DNA of 32,000 bases from Crocosphaera subtropica ATCC 51142 (GCF_000017845.1 NC_010546.1:2220001-2252000), one strand, 5' to 3'. Shown: positions 1 through 18,938, numbered from the stretch's first letter. Notes: generated from the letters alone by a model not told the origin. Program-made: numbers and translations.

Positions 1-57
1 AGTTACGTCATATTTGACTATATTTCTATTAACGATTAGGCTGATTCTAATGGCATT

Positions 58-975
58 TTAAGCAACGATTTCAAACTGACCATAGAAGATATGCCAGTTA
101 TTTTTACCGTTTAACTGTTTCCATATTTCTTCTAAATGCTTTGCTTTCCATTGTAGAGCTAGTTCATCTGGTTTAGCATTCAGTCGGGACAACTCTAAGG
201 GACTATCGGTAACAATTCCGATATATTCTTCTTTCCCTTCTGCATCAAATTGAATATCCCCACAAACAGCATTTGGCTGAGGGATTAAGACACTTTTTTC
301 AATTAGTTGATAATTGGGAGCAAAAGCTTGAGACGGCGTAATTAAATTTTGGGTAATATTTCCTTGTTTATCTTTCCCACGATTGAATAATATTAGATAA
401 TTTCCTGAACAATTTAACTCAATCTTTAAACATAAAGGAGTCAAAATAGAAAGTTTTTTGGTAGGTTCACCCTTTGGAATTTTCATTCCTTTTGCTCCGA
501 TTTCTTGAAATTGCATCCAATTTGTGTTGGATTGTGCTTCTTGTTTCCAAGTTTCCCAAATATAATCTTGTACCCAGTCAAAGTAGGGTCCATTCCATAA
601 CCAGTCATAAATAATTTGCCAAGGACTAGATTCAGATGCTTTTTTTCGTCCTGGTTTTCCTTTTTTATCTCCTAAACCAAGCTGAGTTTCAGTAATACCA
701 TCAGCCATTAGTTGTTCTCGAAAAACACTATTTATTTTTTTGATAATTTCTTTAATATTTTGTTGTAATCCATTTTCATATTTGCCAGGTTCATTTTCCC
801 TTTGAGACAATATCCTAGCAATTTCCGTATGACTCAGTGGATAATTATTAGGAGTGAAGCAATTATTAGGAGTGAAGCGTTCTATAAATAGGTGATACTG
901 AATTTCAGAACGAGTGTTGCCAGGAAAAATTTTTTTAGCAACGTATTCTAAGAATTGTTTGTCTAGATAAACCAT
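58..975 (-). CDS. Two-domain hypothetical protein: N-terminal HTH-like region plus C-terminal DUF4384-like domain
   Basis: 305-aa ORF with ATG start, transcribed divergently from the 1213/1595 genes. LSHTEIARILSQ resembles a sigma-70 region-4/LuxR-type HTH. The C-terminal stretch GNYLILFNRGKDKQGN...LIPQP...EEYIGIVTDSPL matches my recollection of the DUF4384 pattern, a family often fused or adjacent to caspase-type proteases. The family call is from memory and was not searched. Confidence 0.6.
   Translation of the reverse strand: MVYLDKQFLEYVAKKIFPGNTRSEIQYHLFIERFTPNNCFTPNNYPLSHTEIARILSQRENEPGKYENGLQQNIKEIIKKINSVFREQLMADGITETQLGLGDKKGKPGRKKASESSPWQIIYDWLWNGPYFDWVQDYIWETWKQEAQSNTNWMQFQEIGAKGMKIPKGEPTKKLSILTPLCLKIELNCSGNYLILFNRGKDKQGNITQNLITPSQAFAPNYQLIEKSVLIPQPNAVCGDIQFDAEGKEEYIGIVTDSPLELSRLNAKPDELALQWKAKHLEEIWKQLNGKNNWHIFYGQFEIVA
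843..878. repeat. Perfect 18-bp tandem duplication inside the 58..975 CDS
   Basis: aattattaggagtgaagc occurs at 843..860 and again at 861..878. It is in frame on the minus strand and gives FTPNNC-FTPNNY. Confidence 0.95.
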
Positions 976-1212
976 CTTGAGTTATTTTGAAGTAGTTTGA
1001 TCATTTTCAACCATAGCAAAAGTTTACTTAAAAAGAAAGAGCTTTTTATTTTAATTGATCTTTCTTTATTTTATTTAAAAATTTCTTCTGGACATTGATT
1101 ATCGTTGATTTCAATTTATTTTTGAATTAGGTATCGTAAACAAAGAAGCTTTTATGGCATTGACTTAAACAAGCAGTCTACTCACTTAATTTATAATTCA
1201 GGCAACGTTATC

Positions 1213-1530
1213 ATGTTATCAGTTTTACCATTGCGTCAGTTAGAAATTGTTGGACAAGAATATCTACTAAGTATTATTCCTCAAGCAAATATTGCACCCA
1301 ATACTTGGCAGTTTGAATTACGCAATAAGAGAAAATCAGGATTGATTCCTGGTGGATTTAAGTTAAGGTTACTCACAGAAGCAGGGGAGTCGTTTCCTAA
1401 TAATGAAGCTATCGCTACTGAAGCAGTGGAGAGTCTTTATCTAACTTTGAGCATCAAACCTAAAACCATTTTAATGTTAGAAATAGAACCAATCCCTGAA
1501 AATTATCATCGAGAAATATTAATTTTTTAG
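1213..1530 (+). CDS. Small hypothetical protein resembling the C-terminal module of DUF1822 proteins
   Basis: 105-aa ORF with ATG start, on the same strand as the giant gene and about 60 nt upstream of it. WQFELRNKRKSGLIPGGFKLRLLTEAGESF...LYLTLSIKPKTILMLEIEP...HREILIF resembles, from memory, the C-terminal part of cyanobacterial DUF1822 proteins (normally several hundred aa). No obvious SD. Confidence 0.45.
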   Translation: MLSVLPLRQLEIVGQEYLLSIIPQANIAPNTWQFELRNKRKSGLIPGGFKLRLLTEAGESFPNNEAIATEAVESLYLTLSIKPKTILMLEIEPIPENYHREILIF

Positions 1531-1594
1531 ACATTAATTTGCTTCTTAGTTTCTTTTCTGGTAAATAGTTTATTTAAGGATTAGAGAATTGAAA

Positions 1595-4500
1595 ATGTCA
1601 GCGATCGCAACAACAGCACAAAGATTAGAAATCGGTACAGCTAAACTCTGGATAGTTTTAGTGGGAGTGAATCAGTATGAGGATCGAAATCTTCGTAATC
1701 TGAAATATTGTGCTAATGACTGTCAAGAGTTAGCTGAAGTATTAGAGATCGCTACTCGACAATTTCAAGAGACAGAAATAATTGCCCTTTATGATGGAGG
1801 AGAGAAAATCCCTAATTTATCAGAAATTCATACCAGTATTGAGGCGTTTCAGTCAGCAAAACCAGAAGATACAGTATTATTTTATTTTTCAGGACATGGT
1901 TATTTAGATACGAATAATCAACCTATTTTATGTGTAGCAGATACCCAATTAGAAGATTTAGCAGGGACAGGATTAAAGTTAGATAGGTTGTTAAATCTAT
2001 TGAGACAATGTGAAGCAGAACGTCAATTAATTTGGATAGATGCTTGTCAAGAAAGAGATCAAGAAGATAACAGTATTCGGGGCAATACAACGGGTCAAAT
2101 TATTGCCATTTTAGAACAGCAAGCGCAACCGAAAAAGAATTTTTATGGAATGCTTTCTTGTGATATTAATGAACAATCTTGGGAGTTTGATGAGTTAAAA
2201 CATGGCTTATTTACTTACTATATCATAGAAGGCTTACGAGGAAAAGCTGCTAATGCTGAGGGTAGAATTGATGCGGATAGTTTATTTAGATATGTACAAT
2301 ACCAGAGTAATAAATTTATTCAATATAAGAAAAATATAATTAATACTAACAACTTTTTTAAAGGAATGTTGGGAAGTTTAAGAGAATCATCTAATCCAGT
2401 AAAAGTTAATCGATTTCCAGCTAATGCGTCTCAAACTCCCCGACAAGTGAGTAGAGGTGGCAGCAGCAGTGAATTAGTTATTGGGTTAGGTACTTCTTGT
2501 CATCAAAGAAAAGCATTAATTATTGATCAGTTATCTTTTTCAGAAACTAATATTCAGTTATGTCGTATTCTCCAAGATAAGGGAAGTTTTGAGGTTGATT
2601 ATTGTTTTTTGAAAGATAAGCGACAAAGGAATATTCAGGAGATTATCAGTGATTATTTACAAGAGGAAACGAATCAAACTTTGTTGTTGTATTTAACAGG
2701 AACAATTGAGATAACAAGTTCAGCAGGGTATGAATTAGTTTGTCAGCAAAATACAAGAATTAATCTTAAGTTACTAAGTCAACAGTTACAAACTTCTCCC
2801 ATTAAAGAAATTATGGTCATTGCTGATCTTTTCGATGTTGATCAAAATAATCAAAGTTTAAGTGAAGTTTTACAACTTAATCATGAAGAATTAAATAAAT
2901 CCTTGTGTGTAATTACAGCAACAAGTTCTCTTCCTAATAATAGACAATTTTTGAAGCAATTAATAACTATTTTAGAAAATGCAGGAGACTCAGAAAGAGC
3001 TTTTTGGGTTTCTGATTTAATAACTCAACTACAAAAATGGTGTCAGTCTCAATCTGGAATTAAGTTATTAAAACCTTGGTTATCAGATATAAGTGGAGTG
3101 ATGGAACTGTTAGTAGAAGCAGTACAACGTTCTAATAATAAAATATTTGAACTTGATATTTGTCCCTATAAAAGTTTAGAAGCTTTTACCCAAGAAGATG
3201 CTTACTTTTTTCATGGGAGAGAAGAGTTAATTAATGAAATTATTAATAAGTTAAAATCAACTTCTTTTTTAGCGGTTGTAGGAGCATCAGGCAGTGGTAA
3301 ATCATCGGTGGTTAGAGCAGGAGTTATCCCTCAATTACTCAGTAAAGGATTATATTGTCCTGACTTAGAAGCATATCAATCTTGTCAAACTTGGGTGATG
3401 TTTCCTGGAGAATCTCCTATTATCAATTTGGCTAAAATATTAGCACCCGATAATCCAGATTTCTTAGAAGGGGTTTTACAGTTAGGGAGTGATTCTTTAG
3501 CAGAATGGTTACATCAACAACCTCAAGAAATGTCCCTATTAGTCATTGATCAATTTGAAGAATTATTTACCCCTAAAGAAGAATTATTTACCCCTAAAGC
3601 GGAAGCAGAACAAGTTGATTTTATTCATCTAATATTAGGTGCGATTGAAAAATGTCAGAACTCTTTTAAAGTGATTATCACGTTGCGAAGCGATTTTCTG
3701 AATGAATGTTTAGCGATGGAAGAATTAGCTCCTTTAATTTCTAAATCTGAAATATTAGTCCCATCTTGTCGTCTAGAAGATCAGCAATATTGTCAAATGA
3801 TAGCTAAACCTGCTCAAAAAGTTGGGTTGGAGGTAGAAGATGAATTACTTAAACTTTTGTTAGGGGAATTGCAAGAAGGCAGTTTACCGTTATTACAGTA
3901 TGCTTTAGCAGAATTGTGGCAAGAACCCAAGCGAACACCAGGAAAGTTAACAGTTAAAGATTATCAGGAATATATTGGAAAATTAGGAAATTTTCTGAGT
4001 CAAAAAGCAGAAGAAACATATCGTAACTCGAATGAATCTCAGCAAAAATGCACTGAGTTAATTTTCTTACGGTTAGTCTTTTTAGCAGAAGAACAAGGAG
4101 ATAGTAATAAAGCGACTCGTCGTCGTTTACCCCTCTCAGATTTAAGAGTTGATGAATCGAAAGATGTTCTAGAAAAAACATTACAAGCATTAATTAAAGC
4201 ACGATTAATTGTGGTGAGTGGAAAAGCAAGTAATCTAGTTATGAATGAAAAAGAAAGGGTTACTCTTATTGAAAATAATGAGGAAAAGATTAATGAGCAA
4301 AATGAGGAGCAAATAACGGTAGAAGTTGCTCACGAAATTTTATTACGAGATTGGAAAACACTGAAATGGTGGTTAGAAAAAAATCGGGAGAAATATCGTT
4401 TAATTAGAGAAATTGAACGGAAAGCGGATGAATGGGAAAAAACAGGTAAGCAAAATGACGATAAGTTTTTATTATCTAAAAGAGATTTAGATAAATATGA

Positions 4501-6841
4501 GGAATTTTGTAAGAAGTATGCAAAGGAAATTTCTCCAATTAGTAACGAATTTATTGATATTAATATAAAAGCAAGAGATAAGAGAGAACAACTAGCTAAA
4601 CGTCGTCAGCGTCAGATTATTGGTGGTTTAACTGGAGGAATCGTAGGAATTTCAATGGTTGCTGTTGTTGCACTGTGGCAACTGCGTCGAGCAACTATTA
4701 ATGAAATAAATGCTCTTAGTAATAATGCGGAAGCATTACTAGCATCGAATCAGGAATTAGATGCACTGGTAACTGGTTTAAAAGCAGGAAGAAGAATAAA
4801 AAATAGTTTTTTTGGTGTTGATAATAAAATCAAAATTAAGCTTATTGGAAAACTACAGAATATTTTTTATCAAATTAGAGAGTTCAATCGTTTAGAAGGT
4901 CATGAATATGATGAACTAGGTATAACATTTAGTCCAAATGGTGAAATTATTGCTTCGTATGATATAAAAACTATAAGAATTTGGAATTTTAAAGGTAAAC
5001 TACTTACTACCATAAAAGCAGGCCATACAAGTTGGATTGATCAAGTAGTATTTAGTCCTAATGGTCAAATTGTTGCTTCTGCTAGTAGCCTGGCCTCTGC
5101 AACCACTGGCCAAGATGGAACAATAAAATTATGGAATCTTAAAGGAAAGTTACTGCATACGCTTAATGGTCATGGTCGTTGGGTAAACCAGGTCGTATTT
5201 AGTCCTGACGGTCAAACCATTGCTTCTGGTGGTTGGGATGGAACAGTAAAACTATGGAATCTCAAAGGAGATTTACTTCATACTTTTGAAGGTCAATTCG
5301 ATGGTGCTGCTTCCAGCGTTGCATTTAGTCCAGATGGTCAAACTATTGTTTCTGGAGGTTCGGATGGAACAGTAAAACTATGGAATCTTAGAGGAGATTT
5401 ACTGAATACACTTAATGGTCATGAATTCGAGATTAATAGAATACTATTTAGTCCCAGTGGGGAACTAATAGCCTCATCTAGTTATGATAAAACTATCAAA
5501 TTATGGAATCTCAAAGGAGATTTAATCCATACTTTTGAAGGTCATAAAGACGTAGTTGAAAATATCATGTTTAGTCCTAATAGTCAGTTCATTGTTTCTT
5601 CTGATTCAGAAGACATTAAATTATGGAAACTTGGCGGAAAATTAGTTCATACTATAAAAGGCAAAAAGTTGTTCCAAACATCTGGGGGACACAAAGTCCT
5701 ATTTAACTCAAATGGGAAAATAATTGCCTCTTCTGGTATAGATGGAACAGTAAAGTTATGGAACCTTATGGGAGAATTAATATATACCCTTCCAGGTAAT
5801 AATGTAACTTTTCATCCTAATGGTTTAATTGTTGCTTCTTCTGATGCCAAAGATATCAGATTTTGGAATTTTAGTGAAGAATTGCTGCACACATCTAAAA
5901 AATTAACAGATGATATAGGGGAAGTAGCTTTTAGCTCTGATAGTTCCCTCATTACTTCTTTTGGTAGGTTCGATGAAGTTATCAAGTTATGGAATCTCCA
6001 CGGTGATTTATTAGAAACTTTTCGAGGTCATCAAGACGGTGTTCTTGCAGTAGCCTTTAGTCACGATAGTCAATACATTGTTTCTAGTAGTGATGATAGA
6101 ACTATCAAGTTATGGAATCTCCACGGTGATTTATTAGAAACTTTTCGAGGTCATCAAGATAGTGTTTTTGCAGTAGCCTTTAGTCCAGATGGTCAATACA
6201 TTATTTCTGGAAGTAATGATAGAACTATCAAGTTATGGAATCTCCACGGTGATTTATTAGAAACTTTTCGAGGTCATCAAGATGGTATTTTTGCAGTAGC
6301 CTTTAGTCCAGATGGTCAATACATTATTTCTGGAAGTAATGATAGAACTATCAAGTTATGGAATCTCCAAGGCGATTTATTAAAAACCTTTGAAGGTCAC
6401 GTATTTTACATTAGTAGTTTAAGATTTAACCCAGATGGTCAAACTATTGCTTCTGCTAGTGCAGATAAAACTATTAAATTATGGAATCTTCAAGGTGATT
6501 TATTAGAAACCTTTGATGATGATGTAAATAGCATAGTATTTAGTCCAGATGGTCAAACTATTGCTTCTGCTAGTGCAGATAAAACTATTAAATTATGGAA
6601 TCTCCAAGGTGATTTATTAGAAATTTTTCAAGGTCATCAAGATAGTATTTTTGCAGTGGCATTTAGCCCAGATGGGCAAACTATTGCTTCTATTAGTGCA
6701 GATAACACCATCAAACTCTGGAGTTTAGACTTAGATGAGGTAATGACACGCGGTTGCGACTGGGTACGAGACTATTTAACCAATAACCCCAACGTCAGCG
6801 AAGAAGACCGAAAAATCTGCGATGGTATAGGTAACGAATAA
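1595..6841 (+). CDS. Multidomain orthocaspase (peptidase C14-like) - pseudocaspase - STAND P-loop NTPase (nSTAND1-like) - TM helix - 15x WD40 repeat protein
   Basis: Uninterrupted 5.2-kb ORF. The track starts at TTG 1589; the first ATG is 1595. Caspase His/Cys dyad: FYFSGHG (His codon 1895..1897) and IWIDACQ (Cys codon 2045..2047). PYKSLEAFTQEDAYFFHGRE leads into Walker A GASGSGKS (3281..3304) and Walker B LLVIDQFEELF (3536..3568). One hydrophobic helix lies at 4616..4684. Fifteen (I/V)(K/R)LWNL-type WD40 units follow. The C-terminal tail RGCDWVRDYLTNNPNV..RKICDGI is typical of cyanobacterial WD40 proteins. Confidence 0.95.
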   Translation: MSAIATTAQRLEIGTAKLWIVLVGVNQYEDRNLRNLKYCANDCQELAEVLEIATRQFQETEIIALYDGGEKIPNLSEIHTSIEAFQSAKPEDTVLFYFSGHGYLDTNNQPILCVADTQLEDLAGTGLKLDRLLNLLRQCEAERQLIWIDACQERDQEDNSIRGNTTGQIIAILEQQAQPKKNFYGMLSCDINEQSWEFDELKHGLFTYYIIEGLRGKAANAEGRIDADSLFRYVQYQSNKFIQYKKNIINTNNFFKGMLGSLRESSNPVKVNRFPANASQTPRQVSRGGSSSELVIGLGTSCHQRKALIIDQLSFSETNIQLCRILQDKGSFEVDYCFLKDKRQRNIQEIISDYLQEETNQTLLLYLTGTIEITSSAGYELVCQQNTRINLKLLSQQLQTSPIKEIMVIADLFDVDQNNQSLSEVLQLNHEELNKSLCVITATSSLPNNRQFLKQLITILENAGDSERAFWVSDLITQLQKWCQSQSGIKLLKPWLSDISGVMELLVEAVQRSNNKIFELDICPYKSLEAFTQEDAYFFHGREELINEIINKLKSTSFLAVVGASGSGKSSVVRAGVIPQLLSKGLYCPDLEAYQSCQTWVMFPGESPIINLAKILAPDNPDFLEGVLQLGSDSLAEWLHQQPQEMSLLVIDQFEELFTPKEELFTPKAEAEQVDFIHLILGAIEKCQNSFKVIITLRSDFLNECLAMEELAPLISKSEILVPSCRLEDQQYCQMIAKPAQKVGLEVEDELLKLLLGELQEGSLPLLQYALAELWQEPKRTPGKLTVKDYQEYIGKLGNFLSQKAEETYRNSNESQQKCTELIFLRLVFLAEEQGDSNKATRRRLPLSDLRVDESKDVLEKTLQALIKARLIVVSGKASNLVMNEKERVTLIENNEEKINEQNEEQITVEVAHEILLRDWKTLKWWLEKNREKYRLIREIERKADEWEKTGKQNDDKFLLSKRDLDKYEEFCKKYAKEISPISNEFIDINIKARDKREQLAKRRQRQIIGGLTGGIVGISMVAVVALWQLRRATINEINALSNNAEALLASNQELDALVTGLKAGRRIKNSFFGVDNKIKIKLIGKLQNIFYQIREFNRLEGHEYDELGITFSPNGEIIASYDIKTIRIWNFKGKLLTTIKAGHTSWIDQVVFSPNGQIVASASSLASATTGQDGTIKLWNLKGKLLHTLNGHGRWVNQVVFSPDGQTIASGGWDGTVKLWNLKGDLLHTFEGQFDGAASSVAFSPDGQTIVSGGSDGTVKLWNLRGDLLNTLNGHEFEINRILFSPSGELIASSSYDKTIKLWNLKGDLIHTFEGHKDVVENIMFSPNSQFIVSSDSEDIKLWKLGGKLVHTIKGKKLFQTSGGHKVLFNSNGKIIASSGIDGTVKLWNLMGELIYTLPGNNVTFHPNGLIVASSDAKDIRFWNFSEELLHTSKKLTDDIGEVAFSSDSSLITSFGRFDEVIKLWNLHGDLLETFRGHQDGVLAVAFSHDSQYIVSSSDDRTIKLWNLHGDLLETFRGHQDSVFAVAFSPDGQYIISGSNDRTIKLWNLHGDLLETFRGHQDGIFAVAFSPDGQYIISGSNDRTIKLWNLQGDLLKTFEGHVFYISSLRFNPDGQTIASASADKTIKLWNLQGDLLETFDDDVNSIVFSPDGQTIASASADKTIKLWNLQGDLLEIFQGHQDSIFAVAFSPDGQTIASISADNTIKLWSLDLDEVMTRGCDWVRDYLTNNPNVSEEDRKICDGIGNE
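1643..2323 (+). other. Domain: caspase/metacaspase-like (C14) protease, catalytic dyad intact
   Basis: LWIVLVGVNQY beta-strand start, CANDCQELAEVL, FYFSGH(103)G and IWIDAC(153)Q motifs in the canonical order and spacing of clan CD proteases. Confidence 0.85.
2504..3058 (+). other. Domain: second caspase-like unit lacking the His and Cys (pseudocaspase)
   Basis: Motif-for-motif parallel with the first domain. ALIIDQ matches LWIVLVG. LLLYLTGTIEITSSAGYELVC matches VLFYFSGHGYLDTNNQPILCV. KEIMVIADLFDV matches RQLIWIDACQER. SLCVITATSS matches YGMLSCDINEQS. FLKQLITIL matches LFTYYIIEGL. His is replaced by Thr/Ile and Cys by Leu. Confidence 0.5.
3161..4378 (+). other. Domain: STAND-class P-loop NTPase with helical/winged-helix extension (nSTAND1-like)
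   Basis: PYKSL.AF..EDA.FFHGRE lead-in, Walker A GASGSGKS, Walker B IDQFEELF, LRSDF sensor-like motif, and later VEVAHEILLRDWKTLKWWLEKNRE. This motif series is the one I associate with the nSTAND1 family often fused to WD40 in cyanobacteria and actinobacteria. Confidence 0.75.
3557..3598. repeat. Perfect 21-bp tandem duplication immediately after Walker B of the STAND NTPase
   Basis: gaagaattatttacccctaaa occurs at 3557..3577 and again at 3578..3598. It is in frame and gives EELFTPK-EELFTPK. Confidence 0.95.
4616..4684 (+). other. Predicted transmembrane helix between the NTPase and WD40 modules
   Basis: IIGGLTGGIVGISMVAVVALWQL is 23 hydrophobic or small residues. It is preceded by KARDKREQLAKRRQRQ (8 basic residues) and followed by RRATINE (2 basic residues). 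Confidence 0.75.
5981..6349. repeat. Three near-identical 123-bp tandem units (WD40 blades 9-11)
   Basis: Units start with atcaagttatggaatctccacggtgat at 5981, 6104 and 6227 (next unit at 6350). Units 2 and 3 differ at only 2 of 123 nt (gatagtgtt vs gatggtatt), changing Ser-Val to Gly-Ile just after GHQD. Confidence 0.95.
6431..6620. repeat. Direct repeat of about 76-78 bp with 114-bp period (WD40 blades 12-14)
   Basis: ccagatggtcaaactattgcttctgctagtgcagataaaactattaaattatggaatct(t/c)caaggtgatttattagaaa occurs from 6431 and again from 6545. The intervening blade is 38 aa and lacks the GH element (TFDDDVNS). Confidence 0.9.
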
Positions 6842-6963
6842 ACCTACTTCCTCACAAATAACTCAGCCTTTAACAACTTTTATTTATATTGATTTACCTC
6901 CACTTTATCTTCATTTTGGAGTCAGTTTACCATGCTTTCAGTTAAGCAAAACAGGTAAAACTA

Positions 6964-7311
6964 ATGAACTTTCAAAAACAACTGAGTCAATTAATTCGCT
7001 CCGATGAACTCATCGATAACCTACCCCCAATTGATATTTTTTCCTCTGCTAAAGATCATAATCACCTAGAACGACGTTTGCAACAAAGAGCCATTAATTG
7101 GGACATGATTAAACTCACAATAGCCTACGGCAAATTTCAGTATTATTCCCAAGCAAAAACCTGGACACTATTAGACAAAAACCTAAAATATACCCCCTAC
7201 CAAAAATTTATTGACAAATTAAGAGGACTGAGAATTATTGCTGCCAATTACGCTTCTGACAGTAGCCTCAGACTCAGTACCGCTTACTGGACATACGACT
7301 TGAGACGATAA
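6964..7311 (+). CDS. Hypothetical protein, possibly DUF4258-like (putative small RNase-type toxin fold)
   Basis: 115-aa ORF. HLERRLQQRAINWDMIKLTIAYGK and the later LRIIAAN....STAYWTY resemble the H..eR..eRgI....v..vl..G ... vvTvY pattern I recall for DUF4258. Weak; not searched. Confidence 0.4.
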   Translation: MNFQKQLSQLIRSDELIDNLPPIDIFSSAKDHNHLERRLQQRAINWDMIKLTIAYGKFQYYSQAKTWTLLDKNLKYTPYQKFIDKLRGLRIIAANYASDSSLRLSTAYWTYDLRR

Positions 7312-7364
7312 ATAGAAAAATTTATTTGTCTTTATTTTAACCCTATTTTTTAAATTGAATAGAC

Positions 7365-7385
7365 CCCTTACTATAGGTTTATCAG
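7365..7385 (+). promoter_or_regulatory. Conserved 21-nt upstream element, copy 1 (cccttactataggtttatcag)
   Basis: 19/21 identical to 8729..8749. Both copies end exactly 24 nt before an ATG (7409 and 8773). It contains a TACTAT/TATTAT -10-like hexamer. Confidence 0.5.
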
Positions 7386-7408
7386 CCAAAAGGAAAAAGC
7401 ATAAAACC

Positions 7409-7930
7409 ATGTTCAATACTTCAAAAAATCACGCCTTAAAAATCAAACCAATTCTTTCTATTGCCTTAGCCACTCTTTCTACTGCTTTAGTTAGTTTATC
7501 TGAACAAAAAACCAATGCACAAAATATTGATCTTCCCAGTGTTGCTATTATTCCTATCTGTGTTCAAACCACACCAGAAGGAACTAAAACTCTTAATGCC
7601 CTAACTGAAGAAACTTCATTATTCAAATGGTCTGAAGTCTATCCCAAATTCTTTCTAATGTATGATTGGCATTTCTGGACTGAATATGTCCCTAAAAACA
7701 GAACAAAGCTTTGCGGAAATAATAGTCCAATGATTTATAAAACTCTAATGCTCATTAACAATAAAAAACCAATTAATCCTGATATTGTTAGTGTTTTAGT
7801 CGTATTAGCAAAAGTCCCAGAAGACCAAATCAACCAGAAGGGTTATGTTGAATTTTGGATGACAGAAAAAGAATCTGACCAATTGAAGAAAGCTTTCGCT
7901 TCTTACAAAATTATTGATGAAAGACTCTAA
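7409..7930 (+). CDS. Small exported protein of unknown function (signal peptide)
   Basis: The track ORF starts at 7355, but I prefer ATG 7409. MFNTSKNHALKIKPILSIALATLSTALVSLSEQKTNAQ is a Sec-type signal peptide, and the conserved upstream element would otherwise lie inside the CDS. No recognisable family. Confidence 0.6.
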   Translation: MFNTSKNHALKIKPILSIALATLSTALVSLSEQKTNAQNIDLPSVAIIPICVQTTPEGTKTLNALTEETSLFKWSEVYPKFFLMYDWHFWTEYVPKNRTKLCGNNSPMIYKTLMLINNKKPINPDIVSVLVVLAKVPEDQINQKGYVEFWMTEKESDQLKKAFASYKIIDERL

Positions 7931-7990
7931 TTAATTTACTCTCTCTTCGTTAATATCTCAAGATACTCAACCTCCATTGATTTTTTAACC

Positions 7991-8551
7991 ATGAATAAAA
8001 CAGTCTCCAAACTCGCACTTTCCCTTATTTTACTAACCAATGTTAATCCTGTTTTAGCAGCATCCACTTCTCACAATACTCAGTTGTCAAAAGAGGTTAT
8101 TATTGTAGCATTTTGGAACCATATTAACCAAGCAATTGATACTATCAAAAAGGGAAGTCAAACCATATCTGACATCCAAGAACGCCAAAGACAAGACGCA
8201 GAAAGAAAAAGACGACAAGACGCTTTGGAACAAGCTCGCAGAGAAACAACAGAAAGACAACTTCAAGAAGCACAAAGAAGAAGAGCGTATTTTGAAAGTC
8301 TTTCTCCAGAAGAAAAACAAGCATACATTGAGCAACAAAATGCAATCAAACAACAACAAGCTGCTGCTAATTTGTTAATTCTAGGCTTGTTTGCAGACTT
8401 TATCATCGGCAGTGGTAGTGAAAGTTATTCCCGTCAAGAAACACCAGGATACATAATACAAGAAAATCGTAACTCTACCCCAACTTATCAACCTACTCCT
8501 GTGAAACCAATACATCCCAATTATGGCAGTTGTCATAGTTATGATTGTTAG
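7991..8551 (+). CDS. Exported/membrane protein with charged coiled-coil segment, unknown function
   Basis: 186-aa ORF. Signal peptide MNKTVSKLALSLILLTNVNPVLAAS; highly charged ERQRQDAERKRRQDALEQARRETTERQLQEAQRRR; hydrophobic segment AANLLILGLFADFIIG; C-terminal Cys pair (GSCHSYDC). Confidence 0.6.
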   Translation: MNKTVSKLALSLILLTNVNPVLAASTSHNTQLSKEVIIVAFWNHINQAIDTIKKGSQTISDIQERQRQDAERKRRQDALEQARRETTERQLQEAQRRRAYFESLSPEEKQAYIEQQNAIKQQQAAANLLILGLFADFIIGSGSESYSRQETPGYIIQENRNSTPTYQPTPVKPIHPNYGSCHSYDC

Positions 8552-8611
8552 AATTCATCCCAAAACAGATTTACATTAGAGCAATTTCAAGACTTGTAAA
8601 CCCCTGTTATA

Positions 8612-8633
8612 GAGGACAGGAAATCATGTCCTC
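8612..8633 (+). terminator. Possible hairpin terminator after the 7991..8551 gene
   Basis: gaggaca (8612..8618) pairs with tgtcctc (8627..8633) across an 8-nt loop. It is followed by ttctcctc, which is only a weak U tract. Confidence 0.35.
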
Positions 8634-8728
8634 TTCTCCTCACAAAAAAACTTATCTCTTCAGCCAATCAAGTTATTTATTTATATTTATTTACATTGAT
8701 CTTCTTTGTTTTGTTGTATGAAATAACT

Positions 8729-8749
8729 CCCTTATTATAGGTTCATCAG
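8729..8749 (+). promoter_or_regulatory. Conserved 21-nt upstream element, copy 2 (cccttattataggttcatcag)
   Basis: See copy 1. It has the same 24-nt spacing to ATG 8773, and the downstream leader and first codons are also similar (MFNTSKNH vs MQNTSITH). Confidence 0.5.
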
Positions 8750-8772
8750 TCGAACACAAAGAGTCTAAACTC

Positions 8773-9249
8773 ATGCAAAATACTTCCATCACCCACTCTG
8801 ACAAACTTCATTTTGTTTCTCTACAAAAGATCAAAAATACACTATTTGGTTTTACCCTTTTTCTAACCTGCTTTCATCCTAGTTTAGTCTTTGCTCAATA
8901 CAACTACGAAATTCAACAATTGCAACAACTTAGAGCAGATTATCAACTACAAATGAAAAATTTACAGACAGAAATGGGGACTTACATGATAACTAATCCT
9001 AAAGCATCTGCTGCTGTTTTAGCTTCAGGAGTCGGCTTTGCAGGGATTTTATCAAAGAATCTAAATGGCACTGCCAAAGTAGTTATAGCAGGAGTAGGAC
9101 TAATAGGAGTTAACCACTGTCTTGATGCTAATAATCGTCAGCATTGTGCCACAGTCTTCGCTAATTTGAATTCCTATGCGACTCAACTCAATAACTACGA
9201 TGAGCAAATCAACTTAATAGACCAGCAAATCAATTACCTACAGAGATAG
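8773..9249 (+). CDS. Small exported/membrane protein of unknown function
   Basis: 158-aa ORF. N-terminal hydrophobic segment LFGFTLFLTCFHPSLVFAQ (signal-peptide-like), a Q-rich coiled segment, and glycine-rich hydrophobic segments AAVLASGVGFAGIL and VVIAGVGLIGV. Confidence 0.6.
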   Translation: MQNTSITHSDKLHFVSLQKIKNTLFGFTLFLTCFHPSLVFAQYNYEIQQLQQLRADYQLQMKNLQTEMGTYMITNPKASAAVLASGVGFAGILSKNLNGTAKVVIAGVGLIGVNHCLDANNRQHCATVFANLNSYATQLNNYDEQINLIDQQINYLQR

Positions 9250-9392
9250 AACAACAATAATAGAGAACCTTATGAGGAATCAGAATATCACTACATAGCA
9301 ATACCTTAAGGTTCTCTAATTCGCAATAAATAACACTTTTGAACTTCATTAATTCTTTAGTTTCTTGATATTTGCAAGAAGAGGAAATTCTT

Positions 9393-9869
9393 ATGAAAAA
9401 AATGACATTTCCCGACAACCTACTATTAAAAAGTTGGGTCTTTTGGATCATAGTAAAATGTAGTCTAAAAATTTCTTACGAAATGAATTCTACTGATACA
9501 TTGACACAGTGGGGAAAAGATTCTTTTTATGGATTAATCTTACCTTGGTTTTGTGGCGCAATTTGGTCTGAATTTGGCTTTTTATCAATGGGAGCGATCG
9601 CAGCAAATATCTATATTGTATTCGTCATTCTTTTCCAGATTTATAGCTTATCATCTAGTCTCAAAAAAGTCATCTGGACATTATTTGTCTTGGCAATGTT
9701 TACAATTTGGCTCGAACCCTGGATTACATTTGTTATTAGGGGCAATTTAGAAGCTTTATTATCTTTTACCCTATTAAAAGGAATTTTGTTTGCTGCTGAT
9801 GCTATTTCTTCTGCTGTCTGGTTTATGTTGACTTACTGGATTTGCGAAACACTTGATAAGGAATTTTAG
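9393..9869 (+). CDS. Polytopic small membrane protein of unknown function
   Basis: The track ORF starts at TTG 9372. I prefer ATG 9393 because gagga lies at 9380..9384 (8-nt spacing). At least four hydrophobic helices: WVFWIIV, FYGLILPWFCGAIW, MGAIAANIYIVFVILFQIY, VIWTLFVLAMFTIW, ILFAADAISSAVWFMLTYWI. Confidence 0.6.
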   Translation: MKKMTFPDNLLLKSWVFWIIVKCSLKISYEMNSTDTLTQWGKDSFYGLILPWFCGAIWSEFGFLSMGAIAANIYIVFVILFQIYSLSSSLKKVIWTLFVLAMFTIWLEPWITFVIRGNLEALLSFTLLKGILFAADAISSAVWFMLTYWICETLDKEF

Positions 9870-9955
9870 GAAGTTTTTTGAAATAATTTTGTTAGGCCGA
9901 TAATAAAACTCTAATCTAGTTTTTTACCTTCAAGTTAAGATTAATGTAGTAATAT

Positions 9956-9990
9956 AAAAAATTAGGGGGATTATCAGAGGATAATCCCCC
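9956..9990 (-). terminator. Strong rho-independent terminator for the HlyD operon (between convergent genes)
   Basis: A perfect 11-bp stem, gggggattatc (9965..9975) with gataatccccc (9980..9990), and a 4-nt loop agag. On the minus strand the stem is followed by TAATTTTTTAT (A run 9956..9961 on the plus strand). It lies 34 nt after the HlyD stop. Confidence 0.75.
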
Positions 9991-10023
9991 CTACAACTAT
10001 TATAATCTTTCCTTGAAAAGTCA

Positions 10024-11652
10024 TTAATCTACCGATTTTAAAGCATCAAGTTTCTTAACCAAAGATTCAGCCACTAAACTAATTACTCGTCGTTTTTCAT
10101 TGACAATAACATTCGCACTAATGGACATTCCTGATTGTAAGGATAATTCTCGACCATTGACCGATAGATTTTGTGTTTCTAAACGAATCAAAGCAGGAAA
10201 ACGATAAAAAGGATAAATTTCATCAGGTTCTAAGGCATCTTTACCAATAGAAATGATTTTGCCTTGAATGTCCCCATACTCACTAAAATTAAAGCTATCA
10301 ATTCTCACATCTACTGGCATTCCTTCTTTCACAAAACCAATATCTTGATTGGTAATAAAGACTTCTGCTATCAAGAAATCTTGAGGAACAATTTTCAGTA
10401 AGGGTTGACTGGCTTTAGCAACAAAACCAGGTTGAGACGCTTTGAGATCAAAAACAACGCCACTGGTATCAGCCTTTAAGTTTTGGTAGGTTAGATTGAG
10501 TTTTGTTTGAGAAAGTTCACTTTCAATTTGAGACAGACGCTTTTTATTTTCGACAATTCGCTTTGTTAATTGACTGTAAATTTCGGCTAAACGTTGCTCA
10601 TTAGCAGCAATTTGTCCTCTCAAATTTGTTTCACCATCTGCCATAATATTGTTTAATTTCTGCTGACTTTGAGACAGTTCTAATTGCAGACGTTTTTGTT
10701 CTTGAATGAGGCGATCAATATCAGCTTGAGTGGATTGAATGGTTTGACGTTGCTGATTCATATCTAAGCTGGCTTCTGCTTCTCTTTGCGACAATTCTGC
10801 TCGCAATTCATTGACCGCTTGTAATTGTTTATCATATTGAATTAAGGCGATCGCTCCTTCTTCTTTTAACGGTTCAATTCGGTTTAAAATTTGTTCTTCG
10901 GTTTGCAGACTTTGTTGAGTATTTTTTAACCCAGATTGATCCCGTCTTTGAATATCCACTAAGTTTTGTTTTTCGGTGGCTAACTGTTTTTTGGCATCAG
11001 CTAACTGTACTTGATTTTGTTGCAGCCGTTTTTCTAATTGAGCCATATCTAAGCGAGCGGTTTGAATACGGGCATTAGACTGCGCTCGCAATGCGTTGAG
11101 ACGGGCTAAATTTTCCCCATTAACATTAGGAATATCCCCTGATAATTTCGCCCGAAATACTTGATTTTCTGTCACTAATTCTGCTCTTTCTCGACCCAAT
11201 TGAGCAATTTCTAAAGGAAGATTAGGGGGCAAGTGTCGGGGAATGGAAGCAGCATTCTGCATCAGAGCTTGATAATATTGATTTTCTTGCCCTAGGGATT
11301 GTTTTTCTTCATTGAGAGACTTCAAACGAGCAACAGTGTTGGTCGTATCAAAGGTAACGAGTAAATCCCCTGGTTGAACCCGTTCGCCATCTTCAACATG
11401 AACTTGGGTAATAACCCCACCGACAGGGGTTTGCACTTCTTTTACTTTGCCTTCTGGTTTTAACTGTCCCGTAACAGGAACCGTTTGTTCAATTTGAGCA
11501 ACACAAGCCCAACCCAGACCAAAGCTACTCACCCCCATCACTGTCCACAACAGAGCTTTAGACCAAAAACTGGTCTGACGAAACGCTAAGGTGATTTGAG
11601 TGGATTCAGGAGAGGAAAAAGCGGATTTTTTGGCACGAATTAAGTGATTCAT
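10024..11652 (-). CDS. hlyD: HlyD-family type I secretion membrane fusion protein
   Basis: N-terminal TM (ALLWTVMGVSSFGLGWACVA), barrel-sandwich motif VGGVITQVHVEDGERVQPGDLLVTFD, a long Q/E-rich coiled coil, and C-terminal beta-barrel motifs (GMPVDVRIDSF, LQSGMSISANV). I prefer start ATG 11652 (MNHLIRAKK), with GGAG about 10 nt upstream, over the track start 11685. Confidence 0.9.
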   Translation of the reverse strand: MNHLIRAKKSAFSSPESTQITLAFRQTSFWSKALLWTVMGVSSFGLGWACVAQIEQTVPVTGQLKPEGKVKEVQTPVGGVITQVHVEDGERVQPGDLLVTFDTTNTVARLKSLNEEKQSLGQENQYYQALMQNAASIPRHLPPNLPLEIAQLGRERAELVTENQVFRAKLSGDIPNVNGENLARLNALRAQSNARIQTARLDMAQLEKRLQQNQVQLADAKKQLATEKQNLVDIQRRDQSGLKNTQQSLQTEEQILNRIEPLKEEGAIALIQYDKQLQAVNELRAELSQREAEASLDMNQQRQTIQSTQADIDRLIQEQKRLQLELSQSQQKLNNIMADGETNLRGQIAANEQRLAEIYSQLTKRIVENKKRLSQIESELSQTKLNLTYQNLKADTSGVVFDLKASQPGFVAKASQPLLKIVPQDFLIAEVFITNQDIGFVKEGMPVDVRIDSFNFSEYGDIQGKIISIGKDALEPDEIYPFYRFPALIRLETQNLSVNGRELSLQSGMSISANVIVNEKRRVISLVAESLVKKLDALKSVD

Positions 11653-11713
11653 GAGATTGACTCCGATAAGTAAGTATCTGGACAAAAATAAACATTACGG
11701 TGAAGTGAGCAAC

Positions 11714-11748
11714 GTGAGTTCGGTGTTAGGAGTTCGGAGGTCAGAGGG
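11714..11748 (-). repeat. Heptanucleotide tandem array (AACTCCG family) in the ABC-HlyD intercistronic spacer
   Basis: The minus strand reads ccctctg acctccg aactcct aacaccg aactcac (5 units). This is the same consensus as the array at 28366..28407. Confidence 0.7.
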
Positions 11749-11822
11749 AGAAGAATATCAATTTAAGTCTCTAGTTACTTTTGAGAATTGGTATAAGTTT
11801 TATTCCTGCACTCCTAAACTCC

Positions 11823-14810: not shown

Positions 14811-14821
14811 GGTTATTTTGC

Positions 14822-14863
14822 GGTGTAGGGTTTTGGGGGTAGGGTGTAGGGTGTAGGGTGTAG
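14822..14863 (-). repeat. Heptanucleotide tandem array, 6 units of CTACACC (sense strand), immediately upstream of the ABC start codon
   Basis: The plus strand reads ggtgtag ggttttg ggggtag ggtgtag ggtgtag ggtgtag. It ends 11 nt before ATG 14810 on the minus strand, and no SD-like purine run lies between. Confidence 0.9.
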
Positions 14864-14872
14864 AGAGAAAGT

Positions 14873-15628
14873 TTAACTACCGAACGCCTGAACTCCCTCA
14901 GAAACCATAATTCTAGGAATTTGACGCTGTAATTCTTGGTGCAACCATTGGTTAAACAGTTCATTGAGTAACCGTTTTTCCATTGCGTCATTTAATTGAG
15001 CCGGTAAATATTTTTCGAGGCGAACGATCACAAACCAATTTTCAATCCGAGTTAAGGGTAATAATTGACCAGGTTTGTGTCGTGTTAACAGTTTGGCAAG
15101 GGTCGGATGGGGAGAAGACAAAGCAACCGGTCCGATCAAGCCTCCTGTTTGAGCTTCTGGCCCCTGAGAATAACAACGAGCAACTTCTGCAAAGTCTTGT
15201 TCTTCTTCTTGGATGCGAAAATAAAGTTCCCGTGCCACCATTGCTTTATTAATGCGGAGTAGAGAGTACATTACTTGGTCAAGTTGGCTTTTGCGTTGCA
15301 AGAAATAAGCCTCTAACTTATGGCCCCAAGTGATCTGTTTAAATTGTTCAATCTTGCATTGACGGATGATTTGTCGGTTGAGTTGGGTTTGCGTTAATCC
15401 CTGTTTTTGCAACCATTGTTGTTTTTGTTCAGGGGTGATCAATTTCTGTTGCTCAAAAAACTGGTCTAAAGCTTGTTTTGTGCGATCGCTGGCAATTTCA
15501 ATATAGGCGATCGCTTCATCGATAATGAGTTCTCGTACCAGTGACGATAACATTTGATAGTCAATTAGCCTTGTCAACAGTTCTGAAGGGCTAAGGGTTT
15601 GGTGTCCAACTTCTAAAATGGCTGTCAT
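14873..15628 (-). CDS. Parvulin/PpiC-type peptidyl-prolyl isomerase-like protein (no signal peptide)
   Basis: 251 aa. FAEVARCYSQGPEAQTGGLIGPV...PGQLLPLTRIENWFVIVRLEK follows the rotamase pattern (FaelA..yS.....GG.lG.....G......t..G.H...). The two conserved parvulin His positions appear substituted (SLLRI and NWFVIV). It is the first gene of the minus-strand secretion operon. Confidence 0.75.
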   Translation of the reverse strand: MTAILEVGHQTLSPSELLTRLIDYQMLSSLVRELIIDEAIAYIEIASDRTKQALDQFFEQQKLITPEQKQQWLQKQGLTQTQLNRQIIRQCKIEQFKQITWGHKLEAYFLQRKSQLDQVMYSLLRINKAMVARELYFRIQEEEQDFAEVARCYSQGPEAQTGGLIGPVALSSPHPTLAKLLTRHKPGQLLPLTRIENWFVIVRLEKYLPAQLNDAMEKRLLNELFNQWLHQELQRQIPRIMVSEGVQAFGS

Positions 15629-15881
15629 GGTTGTCCTACTTCAACGCTCTAACGTCTCAGTAGGTTCGTCTTTTTTGTTTTATGCAAGTATTTTTGCGAT
15701 CGTTTTTGTAACTCACAAGTATGGGAATTGCTATAGTTCGACAGAAATATTTTTTTAGCCAAATGATCTGCAACTGTGCATAAAAATTCTAACTTCACCC
15801 TAAGTATTCATAGAGAGGGTTAAAACTAAGCTTCTTTAACCTTTTATCCATGCAATATAAATCAATTACAGGAGTAAGAAC

Positions 15882-17699: not shown

Positions 17700-17776
17700 G
17701 TTAAAGGACGCAGGCGAGAAAATAAACAAGCCTCTCCCTGCTTCTCTGCTGACTTTACTAATAAAACGCTTAACGG

Positions 17777-17793
17777 AGGAGTATTGTACTCCT
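17777..17793 (+). terminator. Possible short hairpin terminator after the RTX gene
   Basis: aggagta ttg tactcct gives a 7-bp stem and 3-nt loop, followed by ttcta..agttttttt. The U tract is not contiguous. Confidence 0.3.
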
Positions 17794-17842
17794 TTCTACC
17801 AGTTTTTTTCTCAAACAACGCAATTAATTGGAGATAGGTACT

Positions 17843-18892
17843 ATGTTAAATCAAAGATCAAACAACCCTAAAGATACTTCTAAATGGTGGCGAGAAATTG
17901 GGATGGTTTCTCTAATTGCTTTAGGTGGATTGACTTATGGACTATTACAATATCCCGATGATTTCATCCCATCGCAACCCAATTTTGAGCAAATAACAGC
18001 TAATTGGCACATTCCTACGGTTCAAACCTTCACAGGAAATACTAGCGGTGTCTGGTCAGTTGCTCTTAGTGAGGACGGCAAAATTCTAGCCAGTGCAGGA
18101 CATGATGGACAGATTAGAATATGGGATATTGAACAAGGAATACTCTTACATCGCTTACCAGCGGAGAAACAGGCAGTTTTAGCCGTTGCCTTTAGCCCTG
18201 ATGACTCCATTTTAGCCAGTAGCGGACAAGACGGGATGATTCGTTTCTGGAATTGGCAGACTGGGGAGTTGATTACTCAACTTCCGGGTCATAATAAACC
18301 GGTACGTTCTTTTGTGTTTAGTTCTGATGGTCAAACCTTAATTAGTTGTAGTTGGGATAAGACCATTAAAATTTGGAATTGGCGCAGGGGAGAACTTCAG
18401 CAAACCCTTACAGGTCATTCGGTTGGGGTGTTTGCGATCGATATTAGTCCTGATGGTCAAACCATTGCTAGTGTTAGTAAGGATAAAACCATTAAACTAT
18501 GGGATGTTATGACTGGGGAATTAAAACAAACCCTAACGGGTCATGAAGACTCAGTGAGAACGGTTGCTTTTAGTCCTGACGGCCGTTATTTGGCCACGGG
18601 TAGCAATGACACAACGATTAAGTTATGGCAAGTAGCTACGGGAACGCTGATTGAGACGTTAAACGCTCATGAAAGTTTTGTCAATTCTGTTGTCTTTAGT
18701 TCTGATAATCAGACTTTAATTAGTGCGAGTCAGGATAATAAAATTAAGCGTTGGGATTTAAACAGTCTGACGGTTCTGCAAACATTTTCTGATCATAATG
18801 CGCCGGTGAATTCTGTCGCTTTAAGTGCTGATGGTCATCAATTTGTCAGTGGTAGTTGGGATAGAACTGTGAAAGTATGGCGACCTTTTTGA
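17843..18892 (+). CDS. N-terminally membrane-anchored 7-blade WD40 repeat protein
   Basis: The track starts at TTG 17828. I prefer ATG 17843 because ggag lies at 17831..17834. TM segment IGMVSLIALGGLTYGLL follows the basic stretch KDTSKWWRE. Seven WD40 units follow (IRIWDI, IRFWNW, IKIWNW, IKLWDV, IKLWQV, IKRWDL, VKVWRP). Confidence 0.9.
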   Translation: MLNQRSNNPKDTSKWWREIGMVSLIALGGLTYGLLQYPDDFIPSQPNFEQITANWHIPTVQTFTGNTSGVWSVALSEDGKILASAGHDGQIRIWDIEQGILLHRLPAEKQAVLAVAFSPDDSILASSGQDGMIRFWNWQTGELITQLPGHNKPVRSFVFSSDGQTLISCSWDKTIKIWNWRRGELQQTLTGHSVGVFAIDISPDGQTIASVSKDKTIKLWDVMTGELKQTLTGHEDSVRTVAFSPDGRYLATGSNDTTIKLWQVATGTLIETLNAHESFVNSVVFSSDNQTLISASQDNKIKRWDLNSLTVLQTFSDHNAPVNSVALSADGHQFVSGSWDRTVKVWRPF

Positions 18893-18938
18893 TCAGTGTT
18901 AATACCCATTCTAAGTTTTTTAGTAGAAATTGGATCGA

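Follow-up and report, generated by a model that had tools for sequence, protein, structure and literature searches.

In the EACC2-caspase systems described by Kaur, Iyer, Burroughs & Aravind (2021, eLife 10:e70394; PMC8195603), a constant N-terminal module containing a caspase is combined with variable C-termini, including STAND domains, repeats and transmembrane (TM)-linked extracellular domains. The corresponding EACC2+CASPASE+variable genes are preceded by DUF1822 (TRADD-N plus TPRs), often together with an extracytoplasmic function (ECF) sigma factor, and the supplement of that study lists EACC2+CASPASE+nSTAND1+BetaPropeller (1758 residues, from a cyanobacterium), CASPASE+nSTAND1+BetaPropeller (1732 residues) and nSTAND1+TM+BetaPropeller proteins with unannotated neighbours (PMC8195603). 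A Nature survey of 2026 reported cyanobacterial Apaf-1-like STAND proteins with WD40 sensors, in which an N-terminal caspase replaces the CARD (PMC13581612). A 2025 preprint described sensor-fused proteases (caspase or trypsin on a STAND NTPase), including caspase-Avs12 (caspase plus EACC1 in KrAvs12), that free adjacent latent effectors by site-specific cleavage, and mentions transmembrane STAND ATPases (bioRxiv 10.1101/2025.11.14.688446, PMC12642450). Here, we analyzed a related gene cluster at the beginning of a 32,000-nucleotide stretch of the Crocosphaera subtropica ATCC 51142 genome (NC_010546.1:2220001-2252000, hereafter the window), where a gene for a caspase-STAND-WD40 protein of 1750 residues (the giant gene) is flanked by a divergent gene for a 305-residue protein (the partner) and by the small downstream gene cce_2187.

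Domain identities, intact and conserved active sites, a TM helix, linkage of these genes across cyanobacterial orders and cis-fusions of the partner C-terminus are directly established. A preliminary description of this DNA had called the architecture experimentally uncharacterised; our literature search likewise returned no experiment, but the class had already been catalogued computationally in the PMC8195603 supplement. The conserved gene triad and the protease-tracking partner family, in contrast, appear to be undescribed, and the terms DUF4384 and DUF4258, which are relevant to the two small genes, appear nowhere in the body text of Kaur 2020, Kaur 2021 or the 2025 preprint (PMC12642450). 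The main features are as follows.

58-975, minus strand: partner gene, 305 residues (P0001), divergent from the giant gene
Partner residues 1-91: helical module; 92-117: loop; 118-146: two helices; about 154-304: predicted DUF4384-like beta-sandwich
843-878, minus strand: 18-bp tandem duplication inside the partner gene, adding an extra TPNNCF (Tandem Repeats Finder, 2.0 copies, 100% match)
1589-6841, plus strand: giant gene, 1750 residues, with caspase, pseudocaspase, nSTAND1, TM helix and 15 WD40 blades
1652-2305, plus strand: predicted active caspase, Peptidase_C14 (Pfam PF00656), residues 22-239
1895-1897 and 2045-2047, plus strand: codons of the catalytic dyad, H103 (SGH103G) and C153 (DAC153Q)
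2489-3163, plus strand: pseudocaspase, a degenerate caspase-like unit without His and Cys, residues about 301-525
3164-4456, plus strand: nSTAND1 NTPase, residues 526-956 (Pfam E 7e-103)
3281-3304, plus strand: Walker A motif GASGSGKS of nSTAND1, with the lysine K571
3557-3598, plus strand: 21-bp tandem duplication, EELFTPK twice, directly after Walker B (Tandem Repeats Finder, 100% match)
4616-4684, plus strand: single TM helix, residues about 1010-1032, IIGGLTGGIVGISMVAVVALWQL, with KRRQRQ on its N-terminal and RR on its C-terminal side
4874-6727, plus strand: WD40 array of 15 blades, residues about 1096-1713
6964-7311, plus strand: cce_2187, 115 residues, divergent DUF4258 (RelE/ParE-superfamily) protein, starting 122 bp past the stop of the giant gene

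All five modules that the preliminary description had recognized in this single open reading frame (ORF) were recovered by Pfam, hhalign, hydropathy and blade motifs. The length of 1748 residues given there applies to a start at the ATG at 1595, two codons downstream of the TTG that would open an ORF of 1750 residues, while its positions H103, C153 and K571 follow the longer numbering. The caspase matches PF00656 with an E-value of 1.1e-18 (68.3 bits, cutoff 21.4) and the NCBIfam model caspase_w_EACC1 with 1.8e-31, under the cutoff of that model, and the His-Cys dyad typical of the p20 region of C14 proteases is present at SGH103G and DAC153Q. The P-loop module is an nSTAND1 domain covering positions 1-378 of the 379 positions of PF20703 (345.6 bits, cutoff 27.1). 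Among 12 full-length orthologues of the giant protein extracted from other cyanobacteria, the caspase dyad and the Walker A motif are unchanged throughout, and the Walker B motif (IDQFEE) is unchanged in all 11 that retain this region.

Between caspase and nSTAND1 lies the second caspase-like unit. A Pfam family search of this region gave no match, and PF25201, which precomputed annotation places on homologues, was dropped as a name for the middle domain, since it denotes nSTAND6 and overlaps the P-loop. Using hhalign, we compared a profile of the caspase domain with one of the middle region, each built from 67-72 homologues. The two aligned with a probability of 93.9% (E 1.6e-7), pairing LLLYLTGT of the pseudocaspase with the catalytic VLFYFSGHG and IMVIADL with LIWIDAC, and at this profile level the reading of the region as a pseudocaspase holds. 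In every orthologue the unit is present with T, S, R or K at the position of the histidine and I or L at that of the cysteine, which agrees with the earlier statement that both catalytic residues are missing. A tandem of pseudo-protease and active protease is known from separase. Pseudo-orthocaspases, according to PMC6426788, are stand-alone p20 domains with Tyr/Ser replacing His/Cys; the present unit likewise looks like a dead caspase, but carries other substitutions and is fused behind an active caspase.

The caspase-pseudocaspase region (residues 1-524) recurs at 95-100% coverage in proteins ending in GUN4, DUF8082 or nSTAND1 and at about 55-61% coverage in proteins ending in FHA or WD40, forming one unit that heads all of these C-termini. 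In this respect the giant protein resembles the EACC2-caspase systems with their constant caspase-containing module and variable C-termini. A difference, as far as a comparison by description allows, lies in the domain order: EACC2, an alpha+beta domain, stands in front of the caspase, but the caspase of the giant protein begins at residue 22 and has the extra domain behind it.

The TM helix reaches a Kyte-Doolittle value of 2.14, and a hydrophobic helix is found at this place in 11 of the 12 orthologues, also where its sequence differs. Behind it, 15 blade-end motifs can be counted, in line with the 15 blades noted before, and 12 stretches pass the Pfam WD40 model; the superstructure-forming repeats expected at the C-terminus of STAND proteins are represented by these blades, though the TM helix intervenes. 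The WD40 array is the least conserved region among the orthologues (29-54% identity versus 54-82% for nSTAND1), and its last approximately six blades (5980-6698; also 5114-5422) follow a 123-bp period with 84% mutual DNA identity. Strong divergence combined with highly similar internal repeats is expected of a diversifying sensor, and the pattern suits such a role.

Fungal NLR sensors contain internally highly conserved repeats that are diversified by recombination, and the mutually similar last blades of the giant protein recall these repeats.

We then compared, by tblastn with each window module, the surroundings of partner homologues in one genome per species (45 loci, all from cyanobacteria or genome bins). 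All 13 loci with a close partner homologue (44-55% identity) adjoin an orthologous caspase-pseudocaspase-nSTAND1-TM-WD40 giant gene, in genomes from Fischerella, Nostoc, Scytonema, Rivularia, Pleurocapsa, Mastigocoleus and Okeania and in Oscillatoriales/Microcoleaceae genome bins. The two genes are divergent in 11 of them, as in the window; in the remaining two (L003 and L006) the locus is rearranged into a co-directional series of giant gene, 115-residue gene, a gene for a signal-peptide protein (family 4, see below) and partner. That the linkage outlasts such rearrangement argues for function. In the window itself, the divergent arrangement was described correctly before; the distance of 237 bp given with it separates the partner start from a 105-residue ORF, the giant gene being 613 bp away. 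Two of the loci (L010, 1-9247, and L011, 1-9577) carry two giant paralogues in tandem, the second of which is about 50% identical in the nSTAND1 region.

More distant partner homologues (24-34% identity) never stand beside a caspase-STAND gene. In 21 of the 23 distant loci having at least 1 kb of downstream sequence, the homologue is followed directly by a co-directional TPR gene, and in 18 of these a CHAT domain was detected by tblastn (Pfam CHAT E 2e-27 to 2e-63). CHAT is a further caspase-fold (clan CD) protease family. In several of the TPR-CHAT proteins (L024, 11215-15219; L034, 10819-16272; L044), a strongly hydrophobic stretch, apparently a hairpin of two TM segments, separates the TPR array from the catalytic portion of CHAT. 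A divergent gene for a small membrane protein of about 115 residues lies upstream in 11 CHAT-linked loci; a hidden Markov model (HMM) search did not support it as a DUF4258-like gene.

A profile search of 1.84 billion representative sequences returned 206 relatives of the partner, most of them two-domain proteins of about 280-320 residues, and on this basis the family appears to be small and confined to cyanobacteria. In some relatives the C-terminal module (profile positions about 128-301) is fused in cis to CHAT (P0252, P0325), trypsin (P0311), TPR (P0278, P0282) or a STAND-type ATPase (P0314). Adjacency to two protease architectures, together with cis-fusions to the same classes, provides strong evidence that the DUF4384-like module works physically with these proteases.

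The partner itself was modelled by AlphaFold2 from an alignment of homologues, with a predicted local distance difference test (pLDDT) of 81 and a predicted template modelling score of 0.78. In total, about 44 full-length cyanobacterial homologues were collected, and the window copy is 100% identical to a protein of strain ATCC 51142. The loop between the modules is basic, Gly-rich and of low pLDDT (GLGDKKGKPGRKKASESS); it is basic in every member (mean of 4.3 K/R), with an invariant G109 followed by R110 in 27 of 36 members. The window copy gave no match in Pfam (E<=10, DUF4384 included), NCBIfam or PADLOC. The earlier assignment of its C-terminus to DUF4384 stands only through homologues: 2 of the 36 close members match weakly (E about 0.065), while two full-length homologues score 29.2 and 32.6 bits against PF14326 (cutoff 27, residues about 170-250) and are themselves related to the window partner with tblastn E-values of 1e-25 to 3e-28. 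A further protein, P0288, reaches 29.3 bits. The DUF4384-like character of the C-terminus is thereby supported transitively.

An N-terminal helix-turn-helix (HTH), as proposed in the preliminary description, found no support in profile and fold searches. None was found in NCBIfam, a PDB profile search or Foldseek, and none was significant or family-wide in Pfam, where a single member of the 36 showed a weak HrcA winged-HTH match (E 0.18). In the AlphaFold2 model, helices 49-59 and 70-84 are linked by a 10-residue loop without a tight turn. A weak, non-significant match of the family profile (partner residues 6-91) to the SPX domain (XPR1/SLC53A1 N-terminus, E 0.057) was taken as probable noise. 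Searches of PDB and BFVD for similar folds returned nothing significant (TM-score <=0.32, generic Ig-like sandwiches), and a bacterial gasdermin was discarded as well, with no gasdermin among the top PDB fold matches.

The pairing of a caspase-fold protease with a two-module, substrate-like neighbour recalls Craspase, the type III-E CRISPR complex of Cas7-11, Csx29 and Csx30, all the more as distant partner members immediately precede TPR-CHAT genes. Csx30, which the TPR-CHAT protease Csx29 takes as its substrate, consists of a conserved N-terminal domain, a flexible linker and a variable C-terminal domain, which is DUF4384 in one group (10.1101/2022.08.17.504292). However, the partner could not be assigned as Csx30-like, with no Csx30 in PDB profile or fold searches, and the present locus differs from Craspase in combining a C14 orthocaspase with a STAND ATPase instead of an RNA-guided complex, in showing no detected sequence or fold similarity with Csx30 and in lacking a CRISPR context (the scanned window ORFs include no cas genes). 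By name and composition (partner, then TPR-CHAT, with the divergent gene for the membrane protein of about 115 residues upstream), the CHAT-linked partner branch resembles the caspase-TPR ternary system CATRA; it may already have been named among CATRA/CATASP, and the small membrane protein may be a CATRA component; the window system, in contrast, is built from a C14 caspase, STAND and WD40.

The preliminary description had named the 105-residue ORF as the second small component, but the conserved third gene proved to be cce_2187, which it did not mention. In 11 of the 13 close loci, the next gene behind the giant gene is an orthologue of cce_2187 with 75-80% identity, which is above either neighbour; in L011 a copy of 75% identity is present on the same contig, outside the stretch compared. 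DUF4258 (PF14076) is the top Pfam match of all 30 aligned family members (best E 5e-7) and is precomputed for seven homologues, but the window copy remains under the cutoff (15.3 bits, E 0.026; cutoff 25). In a Foldseek search of PDB with its AlphaFold2 model (pLDDT 89), HigB/RelE toxins came out on top at TM-scores of 0.4-0.5, none significant (best E 0.25). Invariant residues of the family include H34, R37, R38, Q40-R42, Y55, R87, R90, Y108 and W109, among them the His, Arg and Tyr shared with DUF4258 toxins, and the Pfam-matching core is preceded by an N-terminal extension of about 32 residues that sets cce_2187 apart from them. DUF4258 belongs to the RelE/ParE (BECR-fold) superfamily of type II toxins, with the gene order antitoxin-then-toxin and an unknown activity (PMC11980606). 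A cognate antitoxin is not evident, as there is no small ORF between cce_2187 and the upstream giant gene.

The classification of DUF4258 among type II toxin-antitoxin toxins also fits a different view, in which the partner alone is coupled to the giant protease and cce_2187, as a mobile gene of toxin-like or addiction type, hitch-hikes independently beside large conflict genes. Divergent relatives of cce_2187 (41-69% identity) indeed stand beside unrelated genes: one is arranged head-to-head with a NACHT/NCC-H/NCAB1 STAND protein in 3/3 contigs (L046, 5886-9354), another lies 39 bp upstream of a gene series for a trypsin-like protease, two COP23 proteins and a PDZ protein (L051, 9001-10124), and others adjoin a NERD-UvrD helicase or lie within an integrase/primase element. 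CHAT-linked partner loci, moreover, have no cce_2187-type gene. Against this view, position, orientation and spacing of cce_2187 are constant in 11 of the 13 close loci across orders, including the rearranged L003 and L006, its identity exceeds that of its neighbours, and neither an antitoxin-sized gene upstream nor a terminator between the giant gene and cce_2187 was predicted. Most other contexts of its relatives are, furthermore, likewise STAND, protease or defence-like. From the distribution of its members, the cce_2187 family looks like a small mobile module often found beside conflict-type genes without being exclusive to caspases; a purely independent hitch-hiker at this locus is in our view less likely than not.

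The upstream region of the giant gene contains two further features.

976-1212: intergenic region from which the partner gene and the 105-residue ORF diverge
1213-1530, plus strand: 105-residue ORF, equivalent to the last quarter (C-terminal) of DUF1822 proteins

The DUF1822 similarity of this ORF had been recognized before and is clear (E 1.5e-15), but covers only profile positions 275-370 of 370, so that the ORF is no full-length member. As a conserved component it did not hold up: when the co-occurrence proposed in the preliminary description was followed across cyanobacteria, the partner was present in 13 of 13 close loci, but a full-length 105-residue ORF in only one (L010, Pleurocapsa). 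Relaxed tblastn located its last approximately 30 residues at the corresponding position upstream of the giant gene, and in the same orientation, in L001 (E 4e-5) and, more weakly, in L002, L005, L007 and L008. A paralogous locus (L054, 6001-10815) encodes a caspase-pseudocaspase protein ending in DUF8082 and, behind it, a 394-residue Sigma70_r4 protein and a full-length DUF1822 protein of 390 residues, resembling the neighbourhood of the EACC2-caspase systems; the window has a probable DUF1822 relic and no sigma factor. Judging from these alignments, the ORF is probably the relic of an ancestral upstream DUF1822 (TRADD-N+TPR) gene and no working component, with some doubt because its frame is still open in two genera. 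Promoter and terminator scans were uninformative, with 32 promoter-like sites versus 34.8 expected, which is not above chance, and Rfam gave no match over window positions 1-9400.

This relic is one of several signs of decay that could suggest mere inherited synteny without functional coupling, or a locus that is decaying and inert in this strain. Both in-frame duplications are recent events: the EELFTPK repeat beside Walker B is missing from 11 orthologues and the TPNNCF insertion from 35 partner homologues, making each specific to this strain. In Fischerella muscicola PCC 7414 (L001, 7340-9649) the giant gene is split and ends after the first half of nSTAND1, and in Okeania sp. SIO2B3 (L013, 4776-9122) it has lost its TM helix along with most of the STAND domain, while partner and DUF4258-like gene are still intact beside both. 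On the other hand, the 5.25-kb ORF of the window is unbroken at 32% GC, where stops arise readily, its catalytic motifs are invariant, the linkage is kept across orders and through rearrangement, and the partner family follows two caspase-fold protease architectures and takes part in cis-fusions. We therefore regard an inert or merely syntenic locus as highly improbable.

We favour reading the three genes as an NLR-like conflict module that acts through a protease and leads to regulated cell death, abortive infection or, as a minimum, a drastic stress response, and give this reading an about even chance. Beyond anatomy and linkage, all of the workings of such a module we infer. The giant protein would be a single-pass membrane protein, with caspase, pseudocaspase and nSTAND1 in the cytoplasm and the WD40 array in the periplasm or thylakoid lumen. 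The array is probably extracytoplasmic, because ATPase and protease need the cytoplasm and because positive charge is heavier on the N-terminal side of the TM helix. Lying across the membrane from STAND and caspase, it could not exert direct-contact autoinhibition, so that an inhibition of the ATPase by its repeats of the type known from Apaf-1 and Avs is unlikely. WD40-driven activation as outlined in the preliminary description would accordingly have to work across the conserved TM helix, a problem that had been overlooked there.

A cue, possibly a ligand, bound by the fast-evolving propellers would cluster the receptor and be signalled through the TM helix and the helical linker preceding it. 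NTP-dependent oligomerisation of the STAND domains would then join caspase units for activation by proximity, the pseudocaspase acting as a built-in partner lobe. The activated caspase may cleave the 305-residue partner, docked through its DUF4384-like C-terminal module, probably in the conserved basic Gly-rich loop near R110. Orthocaspases cut after basic residues (PMC6426788), and the G109-R110 loop is a plausible cleavage site; a cut there would set the helical N-terminal module free as the output and leave the C-terminal module docked to the protease. cce_2187 might be a second output or accessory, probably toxic, for example when freed of its approximately 32-residue N-terminal extension. 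Tentatively, and with more doubt than confidence, we propose in addition that the partner family may be a new cyanobacteria-specific class of substrates or effectors for C14-STAND and TPR-CHAT proteases, serving here as the output of an "outside-in" NLR, with its N-terminal module released together with a RelE-like toxin.

The surroundings of the cluster add further candidates. A family of signal-peptide proteins (family 4, 183-216 residues, motif RLENTGNVPLRVYPQ) follows the DUF4258-like gene in 9 of the 13 close loci:

L002 2998-3582, L003 8956-9540, and L004, L005, L006, L007, L008, L009 and L012: family 4 genes

Family 4 has no Pfam or NCBIfam name and was missing from the window in an HMM search; its place is taken by unrelated small ORFs with signal-peptide-like N-termini (7355-7930, 7991-8551 and 8773-9249). 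Family 4 and these ORFs could be periplasmic companions of the presumed extracytoplasmic WD40 array. Further downstream (10024-18892) lies a type I secretion-like cluster comprising an HlyD-family protein, a 995-residue protein with cyclic nucleotide-binding, C39-like and ABC exporter parts, a peptidyl-prolyl isomerase-domain protein and a 605-residue RTX protein (HemolysinCabind); a separate 354-residue WD40 protein of seven blades is encoded after the RTX gene. The GC content of the first 11 kb of the window (1-11000) is 32-35%, versus 40-48% in the next 8 kb (11001-19000). The low GC of the caspase-STAND cluster and the small ORFs behind it may point to a foreign origin or just to the AT-richness of genes for repeat proteins.

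The signal-peptide proteins conserved beside the cluster, and the location outside a defence island, would also fit non-lethal transmembrane signalling, in which the WD40 array responds to a cue from the envelope, from development or from kin and the partner is cleaved like an anti-sigma or Csx30-type regulator, with transcription being reprogrammed. The caspase unit is fused to signalling-type domains (GUN4, FHA) as well, its paralogues at L054 are followed by Sigma70_r4 and DUF1822 proteins, EACC2-caspase systems were proposed to act via an ECF sigma factor (PMC8195603), and Csx30 acts through RpoE (10.1101/2022.08.17.504292). However, neither the partner nor the rest of the cluster contains a recognizable sigma factor or DNA-binding domain, a gene of a toxin superfamily is kept in the cluster, and the DUF1822 gene is decayed in this clade. 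We consider this explanation unlikely, though not far-fetched.

Several observations also weigh against the three-gene conflict module that we prefer. Two orthologous loci (L001 and L013) are visibly decayed, and the 7-residue insertion beside Walker B could impair the ATPase in this strain. Both small genes are missing beside more distant caspase-nSTAND1-WD40 genes, and by HMM search the CHAT-linked partner loci are without a DUF4258 gene. The candidate cleavage site R110 varies among partner members, and searches of PDB, BFVD and PDB-sequence profiles revealed neither a significant structural neighbour nor a recognisable toxic or enzymatic domain for the partner. For cce_2187, taken alone, the Pfam score is under the cutoff and the RelE-like fold match is non-significant; its relatives also occur without a protease, and it may be an independent mobile module. 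The cluster is surrounded by type I secretion and envelope genes, with no obvious defence island. PADLOC and NCBIfam have no matching system model and none for the partner or cce_2187, PADLOC returning generic caspase and WD40-like matches only, and a literature search on cce_2184 to cce_2187 found no mention, experiment or expression data.

The combination of effector, STAND switch and repeat sensor that the preliminary description had compared to NLR and Avs proteins agrees with the domains verified here and with published work (PMC8195603, PMC12642450, PMC13581612); the kind of system was recognized correctly, while the accessory gene was the wrong one and the problem posed by the membrane was missed. 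With the Avs protease-effector modules, the locus shares a sensor-fused protease on a STAND NTPase next to a small adjacent gene. It differs in that the sensor lies, by prediction, across the membrane, and neither of its small genes is included in the ten surveyed families (MBL, alpha/beta-hydrolase, Pepco, EACC1, PCaspase, bGSDM, CATASP, MPE, CalpT and Csx30). In Apaf-1 and the Apaf-1-like systems, too, a caspase is combined with a STAND ATPase and a sensor of two WD40 propellers, but the present protein has nSTAND1 in place of an AP-ATPase, a TM helix between ATPase and propellers, an extra pseudocaspase and dedicated small partner genes.

The logic of apoptosomes and inflammasomes is now traced back, among prokaryotes, to bacterial NLR-like STAND proteins and to effectors activated by proteases; those characterised sense phage proteins in the cytoplasm and rely on a small set of effectors. 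A repeat sensor presumably located across the membrane from ATPase and caspase raises the question how a STAND switch is driven from outside the cytoplasm, and the built-in pseudocaspase next to the active caspase is a second addition offered by this locus. The partner family, which follows caspase-fold proteases in two unrelated architectures, is a strong candidate for a new class of substrates or effectors. As the host is a genetically studied and ecologically important N2-fixing unicellular cyanobacterium, the locus also bears on the long-standing, mechanistically thin claims of orthocaspase-mediated cell death in these organisms.

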